In this document: in pieces, positions 20,499 to 32,000 of the stretch
Layout of the letters: each line of letters begins with the position of its first letter
How positions within the stretch are numbered: the first letter of the stretch is position 1
Source of the DNA: Bdellovibrionales bacterium
GTDB taxonomy: Bacteria; Bdellovibrionota; Bdellovibrionia; Bdellovibrionales; UBA1609
Direction: 5' to 3'
Assembly: GCA_963692945.1 (NCBI GenBank)
Contig: OY843585.1
Location: forward strand, 510,001 to 542,000
Length of the DNA: 32,000 bases
The notes under the pieces: model-generated
Told to the model about the DNA's origin: nothing
What the model saw: only the letters and a program-made list of their open reading frames with translations
The model's database searches: none
Position numbers and translations under genes: made by a program

Positions 20499-21218
20499 CT
20501 ATTTAAAAAAAGTTTTAAAAAGAGTGAACAAAAATACAAAGCCATCTTTAAAAGGTATGAGTTTTGATTGTCCAAGTCTTTCTTTATAGTTAATATCTAC
20601 AAAATGAAAATTTATTTTATGACGAATGCAATACACTGTTAGAGCCAGCGAGAAACTTAAATCATTAGGAAAACTGTGAATATCTTTAAAAGTTTCTTTA
20701 TGAAAAAGACGAAACCCACTACAAGGGTCAGGGATTAAAGTAAAGGAAAGAAGAAAAATACAATACTTATAAAATTGATTTCCTAGTTTTCTCATTAAAA
20801 ATATAGAACTGTTTTTATGCAATCGGTTGCCCCAAGCTGTCCTAACAGATTTTTGTTGAACACCTTCTACCAATTTTTTTAAATCCATAGGTTCACAAGT
20901 GTTGTCTAGGTCGCAGAAAGCAATCCATGCTTTTTTGGAATGTTTGAGTCCTTCTTTGATGGAATAACCATAACCCTTGCGAATGGCTAAATTTATGATT
21001 TTAATATTTTCTTTGTATTTTTCTAAAAGTTTCTTAGAGGAGTCTGTAGAGCCATCATTGACCACAATGATTTCTAAGTCTTCAACGAGAGTTTCATCTA
21101 AAATTTTTTTTTTAGATTCTAAAATTTTAGGTAAATAAAGAGGGATGGATTGTTCTTCATTATGACAGGGATAAATGAGAGAAATACTTTTGACTTGAAT
21201 ATTTTTTGATGAGTTCAT
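20499..21218 (-). CDS. family-2 glycosyltransferase (polyprenol-phosphate sugar transferase-like)
   Basis: 239 aa. SLIYPCHNEE, VVNDGSTDSS, CDLD (DxD-type), PCSGFRLF. Confidence 0.85.
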   Translation of the reverse strand: MNSSKNIQVKSISLIYPCHNEEQSIPLYLPKILESKKKILDETLVEDLEIIVVNDGSTDSSKKLLEKYKENIKIINLAIRKGYGYSIKEGLKHSKKAWIAFCDLDNTCEPMDLKKLVEGVQQKSVRTAWGNRLHKNSSIFLMRKLGNQFYKYCIFLLSFTLIPDPCSGFRLFHKETFKDIHSFPNDLSFSLALTVYCIRHKINFHFVDINYKERLGQSKLIPFKDGFVFLFTLFKTFFK

Positions 21219-21358: not shown

Positions 21359-22744
21359 TTAAGCATCTTGTTCAGGAGGTTTAAGTCCTTTTTTCTTGAT
21401 TTTTTCTACAAGGGTTGTGCGATTGAGATTCAAAAGAATAGCTGCTTGTCTCCTGTTCCAATTTGTTTTTGATAATGCCTTTAGTATGAGAGAGTTTTCA
21501 TAAGAATCAACAGCACTATTAAAATCCATTCCTTCTTTTGGTATTTCTATGGTTTCTAAAGAAGAACTTTTGTGGGTTAAATATTTTTCAGGAAGGTCTT
21601 TTACTTCTATGTTCCCACCTTCTTTTAAAACAGAGAGTCTTTCTATAAGATTTTCCAGTTCTCTGATATTTCCAGGCCAATGGTAAGCACAAAGAGATTG
21701 TAGGGCTTCCTCTGAAATTCCTTCAATAGGGGTTTCGTTGGTTTTGTTAAAAATCTTTAAGAAATGATGAATCAAAAAAGGAATGTCACTTGTTCGTTGT
21801 CTAAGAGGTGCAATACGGAGAGGTATAATATTTAATCTATAAAAAAGGTCTTCTCTAAATTTTCCCTCTTGAATCGCTTTTTCTAAATCTATATTTGTAG
21901 CGGCAATAATGTGAGCCTTTGAGGGGATGATTTCTGTAGAACCTACAGGGCTAAATTCTCTTTCTTGTAAAACCCTTAAAAGTTTAACTTGTAGATTCAA
22001 ATCCATAGTACCAATCTCATCTAGAAAGAGTGTTCCATTTTCTGCCATTTCAAAACAGCCTTTATGATTGTTAATGGCACCTGTGAAGGAGCCTTTTTTA
22101 TGACCAAAAAATTCACTCTCTAAAAGTTCTTTAGGAATGGCTCCACAGTTAACACTTATGAAAGGTTGGGAGCTGTTACGAGCACAGTGGATAGAGCGAG
22201 CAACAAGTTCCTTGCCCGTCCCACTTTCTCCAATGATGAGCAAGTTCGATGAACTTTTAGAAACTTTGTGCATCAGTTCTGTCAACTTAAAAACAGCATC
22301 ACTTTGCCCAATGATTTTGTTAAAATGGAATTGCTTCTTAATGTTTTTTTTAAGATTTGTATTTTGTTTTAAAAGTTCACTTTGGATTAAAGCTTTATCT
22401 ATTACTTTTAAAAGGACATCCATATCAAAGGGTTTTGTTAAAAAATAAAAAAAGCCTTGATTGATGGCTTCAGCCACAGCGGTATTTATAGACTGCTCTC
22501 CTGTTATAAGGATAGATTGCATATAAGGGTGTTTGGCTTTGAGTTTTTTGATAAGGTTTGTTCCTTTACCATCTGTTAAATTCAAATCAACAATAGATAG
22601 GTCAAAGGATAAATTAGGGCTAAGGTTCAAAGTCTCTTCTATACTAGAGGTGCATAATGTTTTGTGATTTTGTGCTTCACAAATTTGTTTGAGAGAAAGT
22701 CTTAAGCTGGGTTCGTCATCTACTATTAAAATTCTTTTGTCCAT
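21359..22744 (-). CDS. sigma-54-dependent response regulator (NtrC-family enhancer-binding protein)
   Basis: 461 aa. Receiver with DDEP and phospho-acceptor context LSIVDLNL (D53). AAA+ domain with GESGTGKE, ESEFFGHKKGSFTGA (GAFTGA variant) and RLNI. C-terminal HTH WNRRQAAILLNLNRTTLVEKIKK. Confidence 0.9.
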   Translation of the reverse strand: MDKRILIVDDEPSLRLSLKQICEAQNHKTLCTSSIEETLNLSPNLSFDLSIVDLNLTDGKGTNLIKKLKAKHPYMQSILITGEQSINTAVAEAINQGFFYFLTKPFDMDVLLKVIDKALIQSELLKQNTNLKKNIKKQFHFNKIIGQSDAVFKLTELMHKVSKSSSNLLIIGESGTGKELVARSIHCARNSSQPFISVNCGAIPKELLESEFFGHKKGSFTGAINNHKGCFEMAENGTLFLDEIGTMDLNLQVKLLRVLQEREFSPVGSTEIIPSKAHIIAATNIDLEKAIQEGKFREDLFYRLNIIPLRIAPLRQRTSDIPFLIHHFLKIFNKTNETPIEGISEEALQSLCAYHWPGNIRELENLIERLSVLKEGGNIEVKDLPEKYLTHKSSSLETIEIPKEGMDFNSAVDSYENSLILKALSKTNWNRRQAAILLNLNRTTLVEKIKKKGLKPPEQDA

Positions 22745-22810
22745 TTTTATTAGGATACATTAGTTTTTTTAAAAATAGAGAGGGGTTTTTTAAAAACTGG
22801 ACGAAATTTT

Positions 22811-23815
22811 TTAAGGATTTGAAGGGGTTGGTTTTTCTAGATCTTTGTGAGGGACAGACAAGAGATTAGTTATAATAAGTTCACATCTTTGAAGGGCTAC
22901 ATCCATATCTTCAAAAATTTCTTTTATGTGAGATTCTTTATGATCTAGGTTTTGGTTAATGATATAAAGTAAAGCTTTGATACCAGCGATAGGGTTGTTG
23001 AGCTCATGAGCAATACTTCCTTTTATCATGCCGAGGTCTTTATTTTTTGCTTTTTGAGCTATCATTTCTTCCATTTTAAATTCCTTAGTTATGTCTTTAA
23101 CAAGTATAAGTTTAAATGGGATTTTTTCATTTTTAAGAAAGATGGTTTTGATAGAGAATTTAAAACTGAGATTTTTTTGAGGGCTGTGGGAGACCCATGA
23201 GGATTCTTTCAAATGTTTGGAAGGTTCTTTAATAGGAAAAGGAAAAAATTGAAAAACATTGAATCCTATACATTCTTTTTTAGAGATTTTGAGAAGCTGA
23301 CAAAAGGATTTGTTGGTTCTAAGGATTTGAAAGTTTTGATCTGTAATACAAAGAGATTGATAAAAAGAATCAAAAGTCATTTCCCATTCGTGCTTTGTAC
23401 TTTCTAGTTTCTTTTTATTTTTTATAAAATACAAAGAGGAGGCTACAAAGTAGGTGATTTTTTTAAGGAAATTTTTTTTAGTTTGAGAGATTTTATGGGA
23501 AGAGATGAAAGTAAGGTAACCATAATGTAGGTTTTGATATTTTAGAGAACATTTAAACCAGTAGGGAGATAAGGTTGTGTGTTTTGTGTTGTTTTTTTTG
23601 AAGAGAATAGTATTTTTAAAGAGTTTTTCTTCTAAATCCCAACCAATGTGGGCCATCTCACAGAGATTTAAAAAACTTTGTTCTTTGAGCAAAAATAAAT
23701 CTTCCAGTCGGTGGAATTTGTAGATGGATAATAAGGCTTCATAAAGTCTTGCGTTTTTACTGGAGCTTGTTTTGCAAGATTGAGATTTTTGACTCCTGCT
23801 TTTTTTTAGTCCCAT
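22811..23815 (-). CDS. sensor protein with a PAS-like domain and HisKA (DHp) H-box but no HATPase_c domain
   Basis: 334 aa. H-box GSIAHELNNPIAGIK (His270) is followed by only 64 residues. No N, G1, F or G2 boxes. A PAS-like segment precedes it (WEMTFDSFYQSLCITDQNFQILRTNKSF...LILVKDITKE). The next gene starts 66 nt downstream. Confidence 0.7.
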   Translation of the reverse strand: MGLKKSRSQKSQSCKTSSSKNARLYEALLSIYKFHRLEDLFLLKEQSFLNLCEMAHIGWDLEEKLFKNTILFKKNNTKHTTLSPYWFKCSLKYQNLHYGYLTFISSHKISQTKKNFLKKITYFVASSLYFIKNKKKLESTKHEWEMTFDSFYQSLCITDQNFQILRTNKSFCQLLKISKKECIGFNVFQFFPFPIKEPSKHLKESSWVSHSPQKNLSFKFSIKTIFLKNEKIPFKLILVKDITKEFKMEEMIAQKAKNKDLGMIKGSIAHELNNPIAGIKALLYIINQNLDHKESHIKEIFEDMDVALQRCELIITNLLSVPHKDLEKPTPSNP

Positions 23816-23960
23816 AGAATTAAAGATAATATAGGTTGATAGGTTTCGTCCTATTAAGTTTATTCTTCTTGACTAAGGAATAGGGTGAAAAAGCGTTTTT
23901 AGGAGTTTTATAAAAATAATCTTTCTTGACCTCAAGAAATCCATAAGGCAAAAGAGAAAC

Positions 23961-25328
23961 ATGGCAATAGAGCTCAATGTGATTGTTTTGGCGGCAGGCT
24001 ATGGTCGAAGAATGGCTTCAAACCTTCCAAAAGTTTTACATCCTGTTGCGGGGCAACCTATGCTTGCTCGTATTTTACAATCTCTTAAAGATACTTATTC
24101 TAAAGAAATTAGGGTTGTGGTGGGTCAGGCTCCTCATCTTGTGACTCCCATTGCTGGTAAATTTAATGCTCTTTGTTTTGAACAAAACAAAGAGGCTTGG
24201 GGGACAGCCAAGGCTGTTTCAGCCGCTTGCCCTCAAGAGTTAAAAGGTCATGTATTGATTATCAATGGAGATCATCCTCTTATTACAGGAAAGGATATCA
24301 CTCATTTTGTTCGCTCCTTTTATGATTTATCTTTAGATTGTGCTGTGGCTTCTTTTAAAAATCCTCACCCTAATGAGATGGGTCGTTTGGTTTTTGAGGG
24401 AGATCAACTGGTAGAGATTGTAGAGGCTTATGATTTAGAAAAAAGAAAAATAAAAAGTGATTATATCAATGCAGGTTTGTATTTAATTAAAGGGGAGATA
24501 CTGTCAAAATATTTATCTCAAATTGAAAAAAATCATAAGGAAGAATACAATATCACAGATATTGTTAAACTTTTAAATAGAGATAAATTGAAAGTGAGAG
24601 GGATAGAGGTTCCTTGGTATGTGGCTTTTGGAGTCAACAATCAACAGGAATTGGCTATTGCTTCATCTGTTGTCTTTGAAAATAAATGTTATGATCTCAT
24701 GTCTAAAGGAGTTATTATTGTCGATTTTAAAAAGACTTATATTGAATCCGATGTCACTGTTGGAAGTGGTACTATGATTTATCCAGGGGTTTATTTAAAA
24801 GGGCAAACAAAGATTGGGTCCTTTTGTGCTATTGAATCCAATGCTTTTATTTTTGATTCAGTGATTGATAATTATGTGAACATTAAAGCTGGCTCTTATG
24901 TGGAATCTTCTTCTGTGAAAGAGCGATCTGTTATTGGTCCTTATGCTCATTTAAGACCAGATACTGTGATTGGAAAAGAATGTCGCATAGGTAATTTTGT
25001 AGAAACTAAAAATATAAAAATGGGTGATAAATCTAAAGCTTCACATTTAACTTATTTAGGGGATGCAGAAATAGGTAAGGAAGTGAATGTAGGTTGTGGG
25101 ACAGTGACTTGTAATTATGGTGTGGATAAAAAGAAAAGACAAACAAAGATTGGTGATAAAGTTTTTATCGGTAGCGGATCTCAACTTGTAGCTCCTGTTC
25201 ATATTAAAGATAAATCTGTTGTAGGTGCTGGATCTGTTATTACTAAGGATGTTCCAGAAGGATATCTTGCTTTAGAAAGATCAGAACAAAAAAATATAAA
25301 AGATTATAAAACTAAAAAAGAGAATTAA
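23961..25328 (+). CDS. glmU: bifunctional UDP-GlcNAc pyrophosphorylase / GlcN-1-P acetyltransferase
   Basis: 455 aa. VIVLAAGYGRRMASNLPKVLHPVAG N terminus. C-terminal left-handed beta-helix hexapeptide repeats. Confidence 0.95.
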   Translation: MAIELNVIVLAAGYGRRMASNLPKVLHPVAGQPMLARILQSLKDTYSKEIRVVVGQAPHLVTPIAGKFNALCFEQNKEAWGTAKAVSAACPQELKGHVLIINGDHPLITGKDITHFVRSFYDLSLDCAVASFKNPHPNEMGRLVFEGDQLVEIVEAYDLEKRKIKSDYINAGLYLIKGEILSKYLSQIEKNHKEEYNITDIVKLLNRDKLKVRGIEVPWYVAFGVNNQQELAIASSVVFENKCYDLMSKGVIIVDFKKTYIESDVTVGSGTMIYPGVYLKGQTKIGSFCAIESNAFIFDSVIDNYVNIKAGSYVESSSVKERSVIGPYAHLRPDTVIGKECRIGNFVETKNIKMGDKSKASHLTYLGDAEIGKEVNVGCGTVTCNYGVDKKKRQTKIGDKVFIGSGSQLVAPVHIKDKSVVGAGSVITKDVPEGYLALERSEQKNIKDYKTKKEN

Positions 25329-25333
25329 AATTC

Positions 25334-27271
25334 ATGTGTGGTATTTTTGCTTACTCAGGTTCTCGTTCTGTTCCTGATATTTTGATTGAAGGATTAAAGA
25401 AACTTGAATACAGAGGTTATGACAGTTCAGGTCTTGCTTTCTTTCATCAAAACCATATAAAGCATTTTCGTGTTTGTGGTGGGGTTTCTAAATTAGAAAA
25501 TCTTTTAGATCAAAACTCTTACAAAGGGCATTTAGGAATAGGACATACTCGTTGGGCGACCCATGGTTCTCCTTCTAAAGAAAATGCTCATCCTCATAAA
25601 GCCTCTTCTATTTATGTTGTTCATAATGGAGTGATAGAAAATGAAAGTGAATTAAGAAGAAAAGTGGATTCTAGTCTTTTAACTTCAGAAACAGATACAG
25701 AGTTGATTGCTCATTTGATCTCTAATTTTTATGAAAAAGAACGGCCTGATTTATTGAAAAGTGTTTTAAAAGTGACGGAACTTTTAAAAGGTTCTTATGC
25801 GGTGGTTGCTCTCTGTGAAGAAAAGCCAGAGGAGTTGATTGCTTTTAAAAAAGGACCACCTCTTATGTTGTGTAAGGGAAAGGGAGATTATTTTATTTCT
25901 AGTGATCCCTATGTTTCAGGGGAATATTCTAACCAAGTTCTTTTCTTAGATGATGAAGAAGTTCTTTATCTTAAAAAAGATCAATTTGAAGTTTTTAATT
26001 TTCAAGGAAAAAAAATTAAAAAGGAATTTGAGACTGTAGATTACAATCAAAGTTTGTCAGAGAAAAAAGGCTATCCTCACTTTATGTTGAAAGAAATTTT
26101 TGAACAACCACATTGTATAAGTCGTGCTTTATCTTCTTATCTTGATAAAGATAAACAAACTTTAAATTTAAAAGTATCTAAAGGTTCTCAAAAAGATTTT
26201 GATGCTCTTTTTGAAAAAAACTCACAGATTCTGATTGTGGCTTGTGGGAGTAGTTATTATGCAGGTCTTTTTGCAAAATATATTATAGAAAGTATTGTGC
26301 CTATTCGGGTGGATGTTGAGATGGCTAGTGAATTTATTTATAGAAAATCTTTTATTCCAAAAGGGACTCCTGTTTTGTCTATTTCTCAAAGTGGTGAAAC
26401 GGCAGATATTCTAACAGCTCTCAAACAAGTGGAAGAAAGAGGTTTAGAATCTATTAGTCTTTGTAATGTTAAGGGTTCTACTTTGGATCGTAAAACAAAA
26501 TACAGTTTATATATGGAGGCTGGTAAAGAGGTTGGAGTCGCAAGTACAAAAACTTTTTCTTCTTCTTTGGTTGTTTTAAGTTTGTTGGGAATGCATATTT
26601 CTAAAATCAAAAAACATTTACCAGTGGATAAGGAGAAGGAGTGGATTAAGGATTTATTATCTTTGCCAGCCTATATGAAAGAAGTTTTAAATTGCGATAA
26701 ATTTTTTATGGAAACAGTAGAAACTTTTAAGAAATTTTCTGGGTTTTTTTATGTTGGTAGAGGTTTGTATTATCCCATAGCTCTTGAAGGAGCTTTAAAA
26801 TTAAAAGAGATTGCTTATTTACATGCTGAAGCTTATCCATCAGGGGAGATGAAGCATGGACCTCTAGCGATGATAGATGAGAATATTGTAGCTGTTGTTT
26901 TGCTTCCTTCAGGAGGGAAACTCTATGAAAAAACTCTCACTAATTTGAAAGAGATTAAAGCTCGTGGAGCTTATATTATAGGTTTAGGAGGGGCTTCTAA
27001 AGAAGAAGAGTTAGAGAAACTTGCCTCGTCTCAATTCGCGGAAAAAAATGGTTCAAATCAAATCACGGAAAAAAATGGTTCAAACAACAATACAATGGGT
27101 GAGTTAGAGAAACTTTGCGATCACCAGATGGTGCTTCCAAAAATAAACCATTTATTTCATCCTATTTTGAGTTTAATACCTCTTCAAATGATGGCTTATT
27201 CTATTTCCAGAAGTTATGGTTATGATGCAGATAGACCGAGGAATTTAGCAAAATCGGTCACGGTTGAGTAG
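25334..27271 (+). CDS. glmS: glutamine--fructose-6-phosphate aminotransferase
   Basis: 645 aa. N-terminal nucleophile MCGIFAY, two SIS domains (SQSGETADIL), terminal PRNLAKSVTVE. Carries an extra low-complexity insert near the C terminus. Confidence 0.95.
   Translation: MCGIFAYSGSRSVPDILIEGLKKLEYRGYDSSGLAFFHQNHIKHFRVCGGVSKLENLLDQNSYKGHLGIGHTRWATHGSPSKENAHPHKASSIYVVHNGVIENESELRRKVDSSLLTSETDTELIAHLISNFYEKERPDLLKSVLKVTELLKGSYAVVALCEEKPEELIAFKKGPPLMLCKGKGDYFISSDPYVSGEYSNQVLFLDDEEVLYLKKDQFEVFNFQGKKIKKEFETVDYNQSLSEKKGYPHFMLKEIFEQPHCISRALSSYLDKDKQTLNLKVSKGSQKDFDALFEKNSQILIVACGSSYYAGLFAKYIIESIVPIRVDVEMASEFIYRKSFIPKGTPVLSISQSGETADILTALKQVEERGLESISLCNVKGSTLDRKTKYSLYMEAGKEVGVASTKTFSSSLVVLSLLGMHISKIKKHLPVDKEKEWIKDLLSLPAYMKEVLNCDKFFMETVETFKKFSGFFYVGRGLYYPIALEGALKLKEIAYLHAEAYPSGEMKHGPLAMIDENIVAVVLLPSGGKLYEKTLTNLKEIKARGAYIIGLGGASKEEELEKLASSQFAEKNGSNQITEKNGSNNNTMGELEKLCDHQMVLPKINHLFHPILSLIPLQMMAYSISRSYGYDADRPRNLAKSVTVE
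27008..27115 (+). repeat. nested in-frame direct repeats inside glmS
   Basis: The 15-mer GAGTTAGAGAAACTT occurs at 27008-27022 and 27101-27115, 93 nt (31 codons) apart. Inside that interval the 19-mer CGGAAAAAAATGGTTCAAA occurs at 27039-27057 and 27066-27084, 27 nt (9 codons) apart. These encode ELEKL...AEKNGSNQI/TEKNGSNNN...ELEKL. Confidence 0.9.
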
Positions 27272-27293
27272 GGGATGTATAAAAGACTTTAAA

Positions 27294-27311
27294 AAAATAC
27301 TAGAGTATTTT
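27294..27311 (+). terminator. possible weak hairpin after glmS
   Basis: AAAATAC (27294-27300) / GTATTTT (27305-27311) with a 4-nt loop, 23 nt after the glmS stop. The stem is almost all A/T and the trailing U tract is part of the stem, so support is low. Confidence 0.2.
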
Positions 27312-27371
27312 ATAACTATAATGTTAAAATTATGGAGTGTTTAGTTTGATAATAATTTGAGAGGAGATGTT

Positions 27372-28037
27372 ATGGATATTAAGCGTAGGCTTTTTTTAGA
27401 GAAATTAGGATTATCTAGCTTAGCCTTATTTCTGCCTAGATTTAGTTTGAGTTCAACTTCAATTTCTCAGAAAGATTTGAAATACTCTTCTATTTTGAAT
27501 AGGATTCCTAATAAATCTAGTAGGGATAAAATAGATAAAAAGATCAATTATTTAGAAAATTGGGATTTAGAGGCAGAGATTTCTTATAGGAAAGATCTTA
27601 AAGTATTTATAGAAACAATCCTTAAAGATATTAAAATACCAAGTCATGGGAAAATTCTGGAAATAGGTTCTTACAAAGGGCAAAACTTAGATAATTTGAA
27701 TGCTCTTTATGGTAAAAGTCGTGTTCTGGGTATAGATGCTTATAAATATAATAATCATCCTCAAATTTTAGAAGCGGATATTCGTAATATACAAAATGAT
27801 ACATCTATCAAGTCTTTGGCTCTAGGTTGGAATAGTGCTTCTGATTGGGACACTTCCCCTAAGTCTCGTTTATCTGCTTTCTCGTTTATTCATAAACGCT
27901 TGGTAAAAGGTGGAATTTATGTGGATGAGGAATTTTTATTAGATGATCTAATGATTAAGTTTCTTTTAAAAGAATTTGGTTTGAAAAAAATTGCTAGTTT
28001 TAAAAATGAATCCTATGTTTTTAGAAAAATCACTTAA
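27372..28037 (+). CDS. class I SAM-methyltransferase-like protein with a twin-arginine (Tat)-type N-terminal signal
   Basis: I prefer ATG 27372 to the TTG at 27357, because GAGGAG lies 5 nt upstream. N terminus MDIKRRLFLEKLGLSSLALFLPRFSLSS. Rossmann motifs ILEIGSYKGQN (motif I), VLGIDAY (II), LEADIRNI (III), LVKGGIYV. Confidence 0.6.
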   Translation: MDIKRRLFLEKLGLSSLALFLPRFSLSSTSISQKDLKYSSILNRIPNKSSRDKIDKKINYLENWDLEAEISYRKDLKVFIETILKDIKIPSHGKILEIGSYKGQNLDNLNALYGKSRVLGIDAYKYNNHPQILEADIRNIQNDTSIKSLALGWNSASDWDTSPKSRLSAFSFIHKRLVKGGIYVDEEFLLDDLMIKFLLKEFGLKKIASFKNESYVFRKIT

Positions 28038-28064
28038 ATAATTAAGATAAATCTTGAAATATAA

Positions 28065-28691
28065 TTATGAAATATTAGAAGAAATTGCTTTTGACCAACC
28101 TTTTAATGCAAATTTATTTTGATTGTAAGAATGAGAAACTACCCATTGATAACATGCAGGATCATTTTTGTTAGGACATACCAAAAGTTTTTTATCATGT
28201 GCATGCCATTTTACATTAAAGTAATTAGAAAATTCTAATTCAATTCTTTTCATAATTTTTTTAGAGTTGCCTTGTTTTGATATGAATATATGATCAGCTC
28301 CAAATGATTTTGCATAGTTGAATTGATGTTCAATAATTGTAAGGGTTTTTTTAGAAGATATGTAAAAATAATTTGTTCTAAAATCTGTACTTATGTAAGT
28401 TCTATTGTATACTCTAAATATCTTATTTCCATAAAACTTCCTATTAAACACAGTAGAAAAAGACTTGATTAAATTATTTTGTTGTATAATAGAGATGAGG
28501 TTTTGTTCTTGGAGGTTGAAATTTTTACTAGAGTAATTTTCTTTTAATTTGTCATCTGATGATCTCAAAGAGAATAACAAGAATTTTTGTAATTTTTTAA
28601 TAAGAAATGTATTTTTTTTGTGAGGTGAAAAAGAGATGATATGGCAGTTTTCAGTGTAATCTTCTTTAAAATAGTAAGGTGTATCTATCAA
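28065..28691 (-). CDS. hypothetical protein (208 aa), start uncertain
   Basis: Long ORF in an AT-rich region. The only start candidate near the 5' end is TTG at 28691-28689, 2 nt after the ankyrin stop, with no SD and no in-frame ATG for about 150 codons. No domain recognised. Confidence 0.55.
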   Translation of the reverse strand: MIDTPYYFKEDYTENCHIISFSPHKKNTFLIKKLQKFLLFSLRSSDDKLKENYSSKNFNLQEQNLISIIQQNNLIKSFSTVFNRKFYGNKIFRVYNRTYISTDFRTNYFYISSKKTLTIIEHQFNYAKSFGADHIFISKQGNSKKIMKRIELEFSNYFNVKWHAHDKKLLVCPNKNDPACYQWVVSHSYNQNKFALKGWSKAISSNIS

Positions 28692-28693
28692 TT

Positions 28694-29203
28694 TTATTTA
28701 TTTTTCAGTTTTTGAAAAAGAGGTGTTTGTTTAAATTGCTGGTTTTCCTCCATCCAATTCAAAGCTGTTCTCCCATATATATCTTTAAATGTAGTATCAG
28801 CTTTGTGTTCAAGTAAGAGCTGAATAGTTTCTGGATTAATAAACTTATTTTTACGATCTGTCGTTGGCATAGCAGCTGCAAGAAGAGAGTGAGCTTTATA
28901 TTGATTGTCGCGTAAATTAACATTTGCTCCGTATTTTAACAGGAGATCAATCACTTTAGAATCAGCTCTATAAGAAGCAGCCCACATTAAAGGAGTGGCA
29001 CCATAGTTATCTTTGATGTCTATAATTATATTTCTGCTGTTTAATAGCTCTTTTGTAAAATCATAAGCTTTATTTTTTCTTATAACTGCGTAATGTAAGG
29101 GGGTAGTTCCTTTTTTAGTTTTTGCGTTGATATTCACACCAGAAGAAATCAAGAGGTTAACTATTTGTGAATCATTGTTTTTTTTAACAGCAAAGTGGAG
29201 CAT
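28694..29203 (-). CDS. ankyrin-repeat protein (or the C-terminal part of one)
   Basis: 169 aa with about 4 ANK units: GTTPLHYAV...LLNS, GATPLMWAA...LLLKYGANVNLRD, SLLAAA...LLLEHKAD, GRTALNWM. The frame stays open and ANK-like for 15 codons upstream of the ATG. Confidence 0.85.
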   Translation of the reverse strand: MLHFAVKKNNDSQIVNLLISSGVNINAKTKKGTTPLHYAVIRKNKAYDFTKELLNSRNIIIDIKDNYGATPLMWAASYRADSKVIDLLLKYGANVNLRDNQYKAHSLLAAAMPTTDRKNKFINPETIQLLLEHKADTTFKDIYGRTALNWMEENQQFKQTPLFQKLKNK

Positions 29204-29238
29204 ATTTTTATTTTTTTCATTTAATATATTAATATTTT

Positions 29239-29493
29239 TTATATTTTTTTAACGTCTGATAGTGTTGCTCTTTCCCAAAAAAGATTTGTTAGATAATTGG
29301 TTTTTATAGTTTGTTCACCAGAGAATTTTACAATTGGTTCACTCTCATATGAATGTGTATTTTTTGGTTCGTATTTGTAAATAAAATAGCCCCCACCATA
29401 TAGGAAAAGACACAAAATTGAATAAACCACAATGTTTTTCTTCATAATCAATTTATATATTTGATTTATTGTTGTTTCAACCAATTTCTTCAA
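29239..29493 (-). CDS. membrane-anchor ORF (84 aa), probably the N-terminal part of the ankyrin gene
   Basis: MKKNIVVYSILCLFLYGGGYFIY signal-anchor/TM segment. The C-terminal ...WERATLSDVKKI looks like the start of an ANK capping repeat. Ends right after an A7 run. An alternative start is the second Met, at 29445. Confidence 0.55.
   Translation of the reverse strand: MKKLVETTINQIYKLIMKKNIVVYSILCLFLYGGGYFIYKYEPKNTHSYESEPIVKFSGEQTIKTNYLTNLFWERATLSDVKKI
29244..29250 (-). repeat. A7 homopolymer (T7 on the plus strand) at the junction of the two ankyrin-locus ORFs
   Basis: Read directly: GTT AAA AAA ATA TAA on the minus strand. One extra A gives V K K N I K N I N I L N E K N K N M L H F A V, which fuses 29493->28694 into a single frame. 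Confidence 0.9.
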
Positions 29494-29562
29494 TTTTTTG
29501 TTTGATTTTTATTGGAATTTGATTATTTTTTTAATAGTGTTACTTTTTGAGGTTATAGCCAT

Positions 29563-30204
29563 ATGTCAAGTTCATTAATTCATGTTAATTCTATATATCG
29601 ATTTGGAGATTGTTACGCATTAAATCAGGAACTTGGTAAAGATTTCTTAGATGAATTAGAAAAATATAAAGACAAATGGGTACAGTATAATCCAAGAAAA
29701 ACTATTAATAGAACAGGTCTTTCTGTGTTTAATTATACTGGTAAATTTGATACTAATCCTGCTTTAGATAGCCTTAGTGAGTATAATCATGCCCATGGAA
29801 CTAATATTACAGAGGAAAATTGTAATAAACCAACAAAACTTTATAAAGAAAGTAAAATCCTAAAGGAGTTTTTTAAAGATATGCTTCCTTGGTGCGTAAG
29901 AACGCATTTTATAAAACTTGGGCCAGGTGGTTTTTTTCCTCCTCATCGTGATCATAGGATGGGGGTACAGACAATTTTTAGGATGATTGTTCCTGTTAAA
30001 AATTGCAATCCTCCTCATGTGAGATTTTTTATAGAGGATAGAACTCTTTATTGGGAATATGGAACGCTTTATGTTGTAAACACTATAAAGCAACATTCCT
30101 TGTTTAATGCAAGTTCAGCTCAAGACAGTATCTGGCTTATAATCAATGCCAGAGTTTGTGAAGAGTCCATTAACTTTGTATCAAGTCATTTTAAGGAGAA
30201 TTAA
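29563..30204 (+). CDS. cupin-fold, Fe(II)/2OG-oxygenase-like protein (Asp/Asn beta-hydroxylase-like layout)
   Basis: 213 aa. LGPGGFFPPHRDH (H128-x-D130) and distal KQHSLFN (H178). Strand pattern FRMIVPV...VRFFIED...LYWEYGTLYVVNT...WLIINA. Confidence 0.5.
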   Translation: MSSSLIHVNSIYRFGDCYALNQELGKDFLDELEKYKDKWVQYNPRKTINRTGLSVFNYTGKFDTNPALDSLSEYNHAHGTNITEENCNKPTKLYKESKILKEFFKDMLPWCVRTHFIKLGPGGFFPPHRDHRMGVQTIFRMIVPVKNCNPPHVRFFIEDRTLYWEYGTLYVVNTIKQHSLFNASSAQDSIWLIINARVCEESINFVSSHFKEN

Positions 30205-30269
30205 ATTTTATTTGTTAAGAATCGATAGATATCCTGATCAATAAGAGAGAGAGTTATAAAGAAGTAATT

Positions 30270-30968
30270 ATGAATCAAGATTCAATTATTTATTACATGA
30301 AAGGACTAGGAAAAGTTTTAAGATCGGAATATTTTAAAACTGAGCATTCAAGAGTTCTTCAAGATTTACAAGATGCTACTTCTTTTGGTCAAGTCCGATC
30401 TAAAGAATGGATACTGCAAATTCTAAAAGAAAAAAATATAAAAGATTTAGGTCAAATTTTTTTATGTGCTGGTTGGTATGGATTCTTGGCTTTTCTTTTA
30501 TTGCAAGATACTTTCTTTTCTATTAAAAATATTTTTCTTTTTGAGAAAGACGAGTTAAGTGTAAAAGTTTCAGAACATATAAATTATTATTTTGTTCAAC
30601 AAGAATGGAAATTTAAATCCACTTTTAAAGATATTTTAGATATTAACTATTCAGGTGATACTTTTAAAACTTTAAAGCCTAATGGAGAATTTGAAAAGAT
30701 ATTTTCAGATCCAGATACAATCATCAATACTTCTTGCGAGCATATTAAGCAATTTGATGATTGGTGGGGTAAAATTCCAACTAAGAAATTAGTTATTTTA
30801 CAAAGTAATAATTACAAAGAACTTGAAGAGCATGTAAATTGTGTTTCTTCTTTGAAAGAATTTAAAGAAAAAGCACCTATGAATCATTTGATATATGCAG
30901 GATCTTTAAATTTAGAAAAATATACAAAACTAAAATATATACGTTTCATGTTAATAGGTTATAAGTAA
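30270..30968 (+). CDS. hypothetical protein, possible Rossmann-fold SAM-methyltransferase
   Basis: 232 aa. IFLCAGWYG (motif I-like), IFLFEKDE (acidic end of beta-2), DILDINY, DTIINTSCEH (motif IV-like). The assignment is weak. Confidence 0.4.
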   Translation: MNQDSIIYYMKGLGKVLRSEYFKTEHSRVLQDLQDATSFGQVRSKEWILQILKEKNIKDLGQIFLCAGWYGFLAFLLLQDTFFSIKNIFLFEKDELSVKVSEHINYYFVQQEWKFKSTFKDILDINYSGDTFKTLKPNGEFEKIFSDPDTIINTSCEHIKQFDDWWGKIPTKKLVILQSNNYKELEEHVNCVSSLKEFKEKAPMNHLIYAGSLNLEKYTKLKYIRFMLIGYK

Positions 30969-31000
30969 GGTTAAATAAAAAACAACAAAAAGTATTATAT

Positions 31001-31029
31001 TTTACATTTGACCTTAATTTAGTTATATT
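31001..31029 (+). promoter_or_regulatory. candidate sigma-70-type promoter upstream of the radical SAM gene
   Basis: TTTACA (31001-31006), a 17-nt spacer, then TATATT (31024-31029), 15 nt before ATG 31044. AT-rich background makes chance matches likely. Confidence 0.3.
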
Positions 31030-31043
31030 ATAGGGCTAAGTCT

Positions 31044-32000
31044 ATGAATCAGAAACCTAAAGTGGATGATTATGCATTTAATATGTCTCAAAATGAGGGT
31101 GCACCATCTTCTTGGTGTGTTTTGCCTTGGTCTCATATCAGTATTAAGAGGGACGGACAATTTAGAGTCTGTTGTTCGAGTAATGTTAGTAAGAATAAAG
31201 GTCTTTTAAGAAATAAAGAAGGGATGCCTTTTCATATAAGTAAGGATAAATGGGATGCTATTTTAAATAGTGAGATGATGAAGAGAATACGTAAAAATAT
31301 GCTTCAAGGAAAATGGAGTGAAGAGTGTAGGGGATGTAAAATTGAATATGAAAGTGATATGAGATCTAGTAATATTTCAAAACGTCATTATTTGGCCCAT
31401 AGACTGAAGAGTTCAGAGTATCCAAATTATATAAAAGCTAAAAAGTTAACAAAAGAAGATGGTTCAATATCACTTAAAGATTTTTCTATATCTTATTTAG
31501 ATATACGTTTTGGAAATCATTGCAATTTAAAATGTATGATGTGTGGTCCATCAGCTAGTAATAAATGGTATCAAGAGTATAAGGATATTTGGAAAGATGA
31601 TTTTTTTTGGGACGGAGATCAAAAAATAGATTTTATAAAAGGCTTTAATGGGAAACTAAAGGTAAATAAGCATATTTACGATTGGAGTGATGATTCTCAT
31701 TTATGGTTAGAAATTGAAAAATATTTAAATCAAATTAAAAAAATTTATCTAGCTGGAGGAGAGCCTTTACTTATTAAAGCTCATTATGATTTTCTAAAAA
31801 AATGTATAACTAAAAAGATCGCTTCTGAGATAGAGATAAACTACAACAGTAATATTACTCATATTCCAGATAAAGTTTTAGTTTTATGGAAGCATTTTAA
31901 ATCTATTTGTGTGGGTATGAGTATAGATGGTGTTGGTGAAATTAATGAATTGATTAGATATCCAAGTGATTGGAAAGAAATAGAGAATAATATTTTACGG
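31044..32000 (+). CDS. radical SAM enzyme with an N-terminal Cys-rich (twitch/SPASM-like) domain; 3' end beyond the window
   Basis: Not in the ORF track because no stop falls inside the window. I translated 319 codons from ATG 31044 without a stop: MNQKPKVDDYAFNMSQNEGAPSSWCVLPWSHISIKRDGQFRVCCSS...WSEECRGCKIEYE...YLDIRFGNHCNLKCMMCGPS...IYLAGGEPLL. CxxxCxxC falls at C160/C164/C167, and GGEPLL is the SAM-binding motif. Confidence 0.85.
   Translation, partial: MNQKPKVDDYAFNMSQNEGAPSSWCVLPWSHISIKRDGQFRVCCSSNVSKNKGLLRNKEGMPFHISKDKWDAILNSEMMKRIRKNMLQGKWSEECRGCKIEYESDMRSSNISKRHYLAHRLKSSEYPNYIKAKKLTKEDGSISLKDFSISYLDIRFGNHCNLKCMMCGPSASNKWYQEYKDIWKDDFFWDGDQKIDFIKGFNGKLKVNKHIYDWSDDSHLWLEIEKYLNQIKKIYLAGGEPLLIKAHYDFLKKCITKKIASEIEINYNSNITHIPDKVLVLWKHFKSICVGMSIDGVGEINELIRYPSDWKEIENNILR

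Follow-up and report, generated by a model that had tools for sequence, protein, structure and literature searches.

A strain-variable block downstream of glmS in a Bdellovibrionales bacterium carries a recurrent set of radical SAM, cupin and methyltransferase-like genes with a candidate tailoring function

We analysed a stretch of 32,000 nucleotides (hereafter the window) from the genome of a Bdellovibrionales bacterium (GCA_963692945.1, contig OY843585.1, positions 510,001 to 542,000, forward strand) and here describe the 4.7 kb at its right end (27272-32000), which follow the glmS gene. An earlier note, made from the letters alone, had listed seven open reading frames (ORFs) in this block and proposed that they form a tailoring system. 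The seven ORFs, here called P1 to P7, were recovered at the positions it gave, with the same gaps and motifs, and the AT-rich spacer between its two divergent units was confirmed. The features are as follows.

glmS, 25334-27271, plus strand: conserved gene on the left, at whose stop codon the variable island begins.
P1, 27372-28037, plus strand: 221 aa, twin-arginine translocation (Tat) signal and class I methyltransferase-like core.
P2, 28065-28691, minus strand: orphan of 208 aa with a TTG start, 2 nt past the P3 stop.
P3, 28694-29203, minus strand: soluble ankyrin-repeat protein of 169 aa (Pfam).
P4, 29239-29493, minus strand: small single-pass membrane protein of 84 aa (from the ORF list and its translation).
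Divergent spacer between P4 and the cupin gene, 29494-29562, no strand: 69 bp, AT-rich, 20% G+C.
P5, 29563-30204, plus strand: cupin of 213 aa, Asp/Asn beta-hydroxylase family, Fe(II)/2-oxoglutarate type (predicted).
P6, 30270-30968, plus strand: 232 aa, predicted class I S-adenosylmethionine (SAM) methyltransferase fold, undescribed family.
P7, 31044-32000, plus strand: radical SAM enzyme of the N-terminal-twitch type, of which the first 319 aa are visible before the window end cuts the ORF.

The genes of the minus-strand unit are separated by 35 nt (P4-P3) and 2 nt (P3-P2), and those of the plus-strand unit by 65 nt (P5-P6) and 75 nt (P6-P7). P7 scored 264.2 bits on the NCBIfam family NF033640 (N_Twi_rSAM), whose cut-off is 170, with its residues 22-317 aligning to profile positions 2-262 of 398, and Pfam placed a SPASM domain at residues 25-99 and a Radical_SAM domain at residues 155-317. 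The CX3CX2C motif reads CNLKCMMC (aa 160-167, nt 31521-31544), and the twitch/SPASM Cys domain (aa 25-99, nt 31116-31340) contains C25, C43, C44, C95 and C98; in the alignment of the family, the columns matching these Cys residues are either invariant or conserved to at least 90%. The description of P7 as a radical SAM enzyme with an N-terminal Cys domain thus holds, and members of NF033640 likewise carry an N-terminal Cys-rich twitch domain ahead of the CX3CX2C core. NF033640 is a curated name to which no reaction is assigned, and P7 is visible only to residue 319. When the P7 family profile was compared with the PDB, the nearest structures were maturases of ribosomally synthesised peptides that are modified after translation (RiPPs), namely TvgB (8VPO, E 1.8e-15) and SkfB (E 2.4e-13), followed by viperin, BlsE, MoaA and BtrN.

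The cupin P5 passed the gathering threshold of Pfam PF05118 (Asp_Arg_Hydrox) only marginally (24.1 bits against 22.6), and about half of its listed homologues carry a precomputed match to the same family. Its predicted metal triad consists of H128-x-D130 (nt 29944-29952) and H178 (nt 30094-30096), all three residues being invariant across 41 homologues, so that the HxD...H cupin of the earlier description was borne out. P5 is predicted to be a beta-hydroxylase cupin of the Fe(II)/2-oxoglutarate type. It shares the cupin core and the HxD...H triad with the PF05118 enzymes AspH, LpxO/OlsC and Cpz10, but differs from them in being short (213 aa) and soluble and in having a distinctive conserved N-terminal half (YNPR, GLS, LDSL.EYN). 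LpxO and OlsC have a membrane anchor, which P5 lacks. The closest solved relative of P5 by sequence is Cpz10 (PDB 7V4O/7V4F, E 2e-4), with whose HRD...H motif that of P5 aligns; Cpz10 is the beta-hydroxylase of caprazamycin biosynthesis and acts on a nucleoside-antibiotic intermediate (PMC9814697).

P6 has 1295 homologues. Neither Pfam nor NCBIfam gave a family match for it, no methyltransferase family of the two matching even at E<=1, and a PDB sequence search with its family profile gave no match at E<=10. Its AlphaFold2 model, which has a mean predicted local distance difference test score (pLDDT) of 94 and a predicted template-modelling (TM) score (pTM) of 0.91, retrieved 417 PDB matches with Foldseek at E<=0.001, and the best 50 of these 417 were almost all SAM methyltransferases or close structural relatives; the best matches had a probability of 1.0 and TM-scores of 0.4-0.56 at an identity of 7-14%. 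The model places P6 in the class I SAM-methyltransferase fold. The claim that P6 is a second methyltransferase-like protein therefore stands for the fold, whereas no described methyltransferase sequence family takes it in. Where a glycine-rich SAM-binding loop would follow strand 1, P6 has the unusual sequence C-A-G-W-Y-G, with A67, G68 and W69 invariant, and not GxGxG; D94, which closes strand 2, is likewise invariant. Further invariant residues precede the loop (G40, Q41, S44, K45 and W47) or follow D94 (N153, C156, E157, H158, Q178, N180, H188, C191 and R225).

Several observations on the P6 family can be added here. Many homologues (such as P0037, P0005, P0073 and P0112) have an N-terminal extension of 2-5 tandem helical units of ~20 aa, for example NSQHQFNKIVESIYKISLTLQNT, each unit apparently duplicating the first helix of the domain; the P6 of the window has no such repeats. 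The source genome encodes a second paralogue (protein P0002, 68% identity). In related Bdellovibrionota-like genomes (L002 10001-10726 and L003 10001-10765), a P6 homologue belongs to a conserved core neighbourhood in the order msrAB, P6-like, ferredoxin-reductase-like, NAD epimerase/dehydratase and Sua5, with no radical SAM gene nearby.

P1 has the twin-arginine signal IKRRLFLEK followed by the hydrophobic stretch LGLSSLALFLP, and the two arginines stand at the same position in all 11 full-length homologues that were read. P1 is predicted from this conserved signal to be exported by the Tat pathway. Its core motifs, ILEIGSYKG ... GID ... DIR ... LGWN, follow the methyltransferase-like layout of its family (VELGxxxG, GxD, DVR, LGWND). 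The Pfam matches of P1 itself were weak, to Methyltransf_23 (E 0.008, 16.3 bits against a cut-off of 27) and to FtsJ, and among 41 homologues 5 matched Methyltransf_23 and 4 matched FtsJ, with a best E of 3.3e-7. Of the earlier reading of P1 as a Tat-signal methyltransferase-like protein, the signal was confirmed, but the methyltransferase assignment is only weakly supported by Pfam. With 77 representative homologues, the family is in itself an unusual one, a methyltransferase-fold-like protein of ~210 aa with a conserved twin-arginine signal (window 27372-27470; homologues P0257-P0290).

We examined whether these genes occur together elsewhere. Since the loci were gathered by anchoring on family members, the frequencies given below are conditional and not genome-wide, and the viral status of contigs, many of which are uncultured, is that assigned by IMG/VR. 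The cupin family profile matched more than 564 metagenome and more than 542 IMG/VR loci, of which 160 were fetched and 60 were usable after dereplication. Within 6 kb of the cupin, a homologue of the N-terminal-twitch radical SAM enzyme was found in 35 of the 60 loci and a P6 homologue in 16, and two other radical SAM families were found in 37 and 26. The neighbours were nearly always on the same strand. One recurrent order was UDP-glucose dehydrogenase, c8, c6, rSAMb, P6, cupin, rSAM-SPASM and N-terminal-twitch radical SAM enzyme, where c6 (an unnamed family) and c8 are labels of gene families and rSAM stands for radical SAM. With P6 as the anchor (more than 588 IMG/VR matches), 64 dereplicated viral loci were counted, and these contained the N-terminal-twitch enzyme in 55, rSAM-SPASM in 56 and c6 in 63. 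P6 and the N-terminal-twitch enzyme were adjacent or nearly so, and on the same strand, in 55/64 independent viral loci. On TARA contigs the order was c6, P6, rSAM-SPASM and then three N-terminal-twitch radical SAM enzymes.

Anchoring on P1 recovered two long loci that contain other members of the set. One of them (L253) encodes a P6 homologue (E 2e-42), two N-terminal-twitch radical SAM enzymes (P7 E 2.5e-55), rSAMb, a fatty acid hydroxylase, a family 2 glycosyltransferase (GT2), an alginate lyase and a PP-loop protein. This last protein is 39.5% identical to that of L009, the contig of a closely related strain that is described below. The other (L255) encodes a cupin homologue (E 1e-22), rSAM-SPASM, a GNAT protein, a family 1 glycosyltransferase (GT1) and homologues of the PP-loop and FA_desaturase genes of the L009 island. 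Thus P1, P5, P6 and P7 all belong to a single recurrent gene pool, from which the alternative island of L009 takes genes as well. The radical SAM, cupin and both methyltransferase-like genes, which the earlier note had grouped from this single locus, do co-localise in many other loci, and it is therefore justified to regard them as a linked, uncharacterised tailoring set.

Two further families of these loci, both absent from the window, deserve mention. The c6 protein (~230 aa) lies immediately upstream of P6 in 63/64 viral loci (for example L004 7277-8011 and L133 7674-8354); its invariant D-x-D (VVDADA) and its strand 'DIVFISY.E' at the N-terminus are reminiscent of GT-A glycosyltransferases, and it gave no significant match in Pfam or the PDB. 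Judging from the DxD motif, our guess is that c6 may be GT-A-like. The second is a conserved ORF of 73-78 aa that overlaps the P6 stop in 36 of 85 P6-anchored loci (for example L191 8566-8784 and L198 8566-8787), has no family assignment and follows the pattern …LRELQ.ESARALSTMQATNNNI.QFNK.AHHNSQNWYKAVI.WY…YGDLPSK.GPGKD.KL…. In viral loci this 74-aa ORF is conserved from end to end, which a leader followed by a variable core would not be.

The pool fills hypervariable blocks of uncultured marine viral contigs and is also found in other bacterial loci. Its other members are UDP-glucose and GDP-mannose dehydrogenases, class III and DegT-type aminotransferases, carbamoyltransferases, B12-type radical SAM enzymes, an APH-like kinase, a SnoaL-like protein, QueC-like PP-loop ATPases, which are frequent neighbours, and Mtd-type tail-fibre proteins. 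Tail-fibre-like or Mtd-like genes adjoin some of the phage and viral copies. The bacterial homologues are neighboured by GT2 and GT1 glycosyltransferases, alginate lyase and fatty acid hydroxylase, and an epimerase/dehydratase adjoins the P6 paralogues of the core context.

Among cultured phages, matches were found only in Pelagibacter phage Mosig EXVC030M (MT647606), Ralstonia phage RsoM2USA and Vibrio phages K566/K567, where the genes are annotated as hypothetical or in generic terms, for example 'putative methyltransferase' or 'radical SAM domain-containing protein'. Mosig, the sole cultured phage with the cupin, has a tailoring block of ~17 kb beside its tail-fibre genes; this block contains a second AspH-like gene, a fatty acid desaturase, TauD, methyltransferases (one of them a P6-like 'putative methyltransferase'), aminotransferases, nitroreductases, MoaA-like or SPASM radical SAM enzymes and a carbamoyltransferase. 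Pelagimyophages have been described as having a hypervariable 'host recognition cluster' that contains radical SAM cassettes beside lipopolysaccharide-type genes, and their core genes include an Asp/Asn hydroxylase (PMC7029224). A T4-like genome carries 12 radical SAM genes (PMC5332604), cyanophages P-HM1 and P-HM2 have Asp/Asn hydroxylases and TauD (PMC3037559), and similar genes have been termed 'antibiotic synthesis genes' with an unclear role (PMC12801897). The host recognition clusters of marine T4-like pelagimyophages and cyanomyophages resemble the present block in drawing on the same gene pool and in being non-syntenic and rapidly exchanged, and they likewise have no established function. 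The block differs from them in lying in a small, low-G+C bacterial chromosome beside glmS and not beside tail fibres, its proteins are 26-35% identical to those of Mosig, and the Tat-exported P1 was seen in no viral locus.

The locus itself proved to be variable between closely related strains. The cupin search had recovered L009, a metagenome contig of 20.8 kb (ENA ERZ22155170), which is 98.6% identical in nucleotide sequence (blastn) to positions 22061-27270 of the window and has no match beyond 27270 except the cupin. In amino acids, the response regulator and the kinase are 100% identical between the two, GlmU is 99.3% and GlmS 95% identical, and the junction alignment shows that the similarity breaks right past the glmS stop codon. 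In place of P1 to P7, L009 has genes for a GNAT protein, an FA_desaturase-like protein, a PP-loop ATPase, a nucleoside-hydrolase-like membrane protein, an IMP dehydrogenase-like (IMPDH/GMP-reductase-like) protein and a 139-aa protein with a Tat signal, and next a cupin 64% identical to P5 in amino acids and 72.7% in nucleotides, followed by DciA and Mla genes. Because a near-identical strain has a different gene content at the same conserved flank, the region from 27272 on is a strain-variable, flexible genomic island that begins at the glmS stop codon. The earlier suspicion that the glmS 3' flank holds variable, non-core DNA is thus confirmed from the first base past the stop, and this comparison contradicts the case in which close relatives share these genes at the locus. 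Scans of genome contigs with P6 and with GlmS found no close relative.

Two differences between L009 and the window were seen in passing. The 139-aa protein of L009 (9554-9973), which lies directly upstream of the cupin gene, has a clear twin-arginine signal (MERRGFLKKF…). GlmS (645 aa) contains a low-complexity insert of ~40 aa (…SSQFAEKNGSNQITEKNGSNNNTMGELEKL…; about 26960-27100 in the window, about 4900-5050 in L009), and the insert's indels between both strains fall where the GlmS proteins most visibly differ.

Tn7 classically lands just 3' of glmS, and a Tn7-like element at attTn7 was considered as the origin of the block. The position fits, but no transposase, integrase, tRNA or meaningful boundary or terminal repeats are visible in the block, which sets it apart from the attTn7 hot spot, and the alternative block of L009 is also without a transposase. 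A 12-nt exact repeat, GTAGGGGATGTA, occurs at 27268-27279, over the glmS stop, and at 31327-31338, in the radical SAM gene. It was rejected as an att-like site, being at chance level for 5 kb and having one copy inside the CxxC codons of the radical SAM gene. The locus also resembles the flexible islands of marine bacteria in which surface-glycan genes are replaced, where content also differs between near-identical strains and the break also falls exactly at a conserved housekeeping gene. Unlike those islands, the part visible here (27272-32000) contains no O-antigen or capsule genes by Pfam and NCBIfam, that is, no glycosyltransferases, sugar-nucleotide synthesis, Wzx/Wzy or ABC export genes.

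The composition of the block was measured as well. Its G+C content is 28.0% against 32.6% upstream, that is, 4.6 points lower, and P2, P6 and P4 lie 2.5-3.2 standard deviations under the core-gene mean, whereas G+C at third codon positions is mostly near normal. The two spot counts on which the earlier note had remarked (16 G+C in 28081-28140 and 27 in 24001-24060) were exact on recount, and the systematic measurement upholds the lower G+C but not an anomaly at third positions. The compositional signal is real but modest, too weak alone to settle the island question.

What the block does can be approached from its neighbourhood. We favour the reading, to which we give a probability of roughly 0.45, that it tailors a sugar-type component of the envelope or surface. 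A sugar-type target is favoured because sugar-nucleotide, aminotransferase, carbamoyltransferase and glycosyltransferase genes are neighbours of the related loci and because P1 and the 139-aa protein of L009 carry export signals; the flexible-island locus and the position of phage copies by tail-fibre genes point to the same target. As P5, P6 and P7 have no signal peptides, they are probably cytoplasmic and would share one small precursor, most likely an (amino)sugar or nucleotide-sugar that would end up in a glycoconjugate of the envelope or surface. Less likely, the substrate would be a membrane lipid, an alternative that we mention because fatty acid hydroxylases and desaturases are neighbours and LpxO and OlsC belong to PF05118. 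In the pathway we propose, the radical SAM enzyme with its auxiliary Fe-S cluster would carry out radical C-H activation, the cupin P5 would then hydroxylate the product by Fe/2-oxoglutarate chemistry, P6 would transfer a methyl group, and P1, exported by the Tat pathway, would act on the product once it is outside the cytoplasm. By swapping alternative gene sets here, strains would vary a surface structure recognised by phages, and phages that have this set themselves could remodel the surface of the host while infecting it.

Several points weigh against this reading. The visible 4.7 kb contain no glycosyltransferase, sugar-nucleotide gene, flippase or transporter, and the earlier remark that precursor peptide, glycosyltransferase and transporter are all missing there was correct; the island continues past 32000, so that its right end lies outside the window. 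The nearest solved relatives of P7, RiPP maturases and then viperin, BlsE, MoaA and BtrN, do not indicate a substrate class, and Cpz10, the closest one of the cupin, works on a nucleoside-antibiotic intermediate (PMC9814697). Linkage within the set is uneven: the cupin, present in just 2 of the 64 P6-anchored viral loci, is linked less tightly than the P6-radical SAM pair, the linkage of P1 comes from the two long loci L253 and L255, and P6 homologues also occur between msrAB and a ferredoxin reductase without any radical SAM gene. SAM is not known to occur in the periplasm, so that an exported SAM-type fold is odd and a periplasmic SAM-dependent methyltransferase such as P1 would be biochemically awkward. 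Finally, no functional study or experiment on these families was found in the literature searched.

The same enzymes could instead tailor a peptide or protein, either a RiPP-like peptide or a protein of the surface or tail fibre, encoded past 32000 or at another place in the genome. SPASM/twitch radical SAM enzymes are typically peptide maturases, as the best PDB matches of P7 are, PF05118 is named after protein Asp/Asn hydroxylases, phage copies adjoin tail-fibre genes and many P6 homologues bear N-terminal tandem repeats of ~20 aa. The polytheonamide pathway, which makes a RiPP of the proteusin class, combines radical SAM enzymes, an Fe/2-oxoglutarate hydroxylase and SAM methyltransferases, much like the present set; in contrast to such clusters, neither a precursor peptide nor a leader-recognition domain, a protease or an exporter was found here, and the related loci are neighboured by sugar-type enzymes. 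Pfam gave no match to a RiPP recognition element (RRE) or PqqD-type domain, the window has no precursor-like small ORF, with gaps of just 65-75 bp between P5, P6 and P7, and the conserved 74-aa ORF of the viral loci (36/85) is not precursor-like. Considering also that the pool is rich in UDP-glucose dehydrogenases, aminotransferases, carbamoyltransferases and glycosyltransferases, we regard a peptide or protein target as unlikely. Nucleoside or nucleotide chemistry, which would yield an antibiotic-like or antiviral small molecule or a hypermodified nucleic-acid base, seems quite unlikely to us. It would accord with the kinship of P5 to Cpz10 of caprazamycin biosynthesis, with the profile matches of the radical SAM family to viperin, BlsE and MoaA, all of them enzymes with nucleotide or nucleoside substrates, with the frequent QueC-like PP-loop ATPases and with the nucleoside-hydrolase-like and IMPDH/GMP-reductase-like genes of the L009 island. 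These similarities, however, are at superfamily level (E 1e-4 to 1e-9), and PADLOC gave no significant match, the best one, to pVip with 26 bits, reflecting generic radical SAM similarity. The window contains no kinase, nucleotidyltransferase, DNA-binding or restriction partner, and a Tat-exported P1 together with nearby glycosyltransferases fits an envelope target better.

It may also be that there is no system at all and that unrelated accessory genes have piled up in a recombination hot spot past glmS. Such an accumulation would explain why P2, P3 and P4 are unlinked to the other genes, why the L009 cupin has no adjoining P6 or radical SAM gene, why P6 homologues occur in other contexts and why three transcription directions are found in 4.7 kb. 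The pairing of P6 with the N-terminal-twitch radical SAM enzyme in 55/64 viral loci speaks against it, as does the fact that the cupin-anchored and P1-anchored searches each independently recovered other members; since co-localisation was seen from the cupin, P6 and P1 anchors alike, this explanation is already weakened and we consider it very improbable.

A wider, tentative proposal can also be made, which we consider possible though doubtful. The P6 family, with its invariant Cys/His set, and the N-terminal-twitch radical SAM enzyme would form the core of an undescribed pathway that is traded between marine bacteria and large phages and makes a new surface modification or metabolite setting phage-host recognition; AspH-like cupins, PP-loop ATPases and, in bacteria, the Tat-exported methyltransferase-like protein would be accessory, and in this lineage the islands at the glmS flank would be alternative alleles. 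The enzyme superfamilies and the type of island are known, whereas the particular module, in which the cupin and the exported P1 accompany the P6 family and the N-terminal-twitch radical SAM enzyme, has no described function. Cassettes of radical SAM, hydroxylase and methyltransferase genes belong to the most abundant unexplained genes of marine viral contigs, and the literature searched notes such genes as 'radical SAM cassettes' or 'Asp/Asn hydroxylases' without a function. The window offers a minimal set (cupin, P6 and radical SAM enzyme, with the exported P1 in addition) that lies on a bacterial chromosome, where near-identical strains differ at this locus. Two strains with alternative islands are a natural experiment on envelope chemistry and phage sensitivity, and the enzyme list is short, with three soluble enzymes that could be co-expressed for finding the substrate. 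Knowing the reaction would annotate thousands of metagenomic genes and would help to judge whether surface-tailoring modules are traded between phages and hosts.

The minus-strand unit P4-P3-P2 stands apart from this set. P3 matched the ankyrin families PF00023 (Ank, 87 bits) and PF12796 (85 bits). P4, whose likelier start is the ATG at 29445 (MKKNIVVYSILCLFLYGGGYFIY...), gave no family match in Pfam or NCBIfam. Thus the ankyrin part of the 'membrane ankyrin' of the earlier note is right, but there are really two separate ORFs, the 84-aa transmembrane protein and the soluble ankyrin protein. P2 matched only itself among 5.8 billion proteins, which confirms its orphan status, and had no family match in Pfam, NCBIfam, PADLOC or PHROGs; its single-sequence AlphaFold2 model (pLDDT 51) was too poor for a structure search. 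Because no homologue of P2, P3 or P4 was found by tblastn in ~245 related loci, we treat this operon as an unrelated, lineage-specific passenger of the island and not as a part of the system, for which it had been taken. The direct repeat TTTGATT in the divergent spacer is indeed present at 29501 and 29518, but the co-regulation suggested from it does not follow: the window holds 27 copies against 27.4 expected, so that the repeat carries no signal. Searches for tRNAs, Rfam families and terminator-like sites returned none, promoter-like sites were fewer than in shuffles, and PADLOC and PHROGs gave only generic ankyrin and radical SAM matches.

Upstream of the block, the genes are mostly core: ribosomal protein S1, SppA, a LysR regulator, a PpsR-like protein, dihydroorotase, a GT2 glycosyltransferase, a sigma-54 regulator, GlmU and GlmS. 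The statement that every gene up to glmS is core was overstated, since an NCBIfam match was missing for 3 of 10 upstream ORFs tested. The GT2 gene (20499-21218, minus strand) is polyprenyl-phosphate glycosyltransferase-like, with AglJ/ArnC-like matches, and lies ~3 kb upstream of glmU, beyond the two-component regulator genes. Its presence lends an envelope-glycan setting to the island's conserved side.

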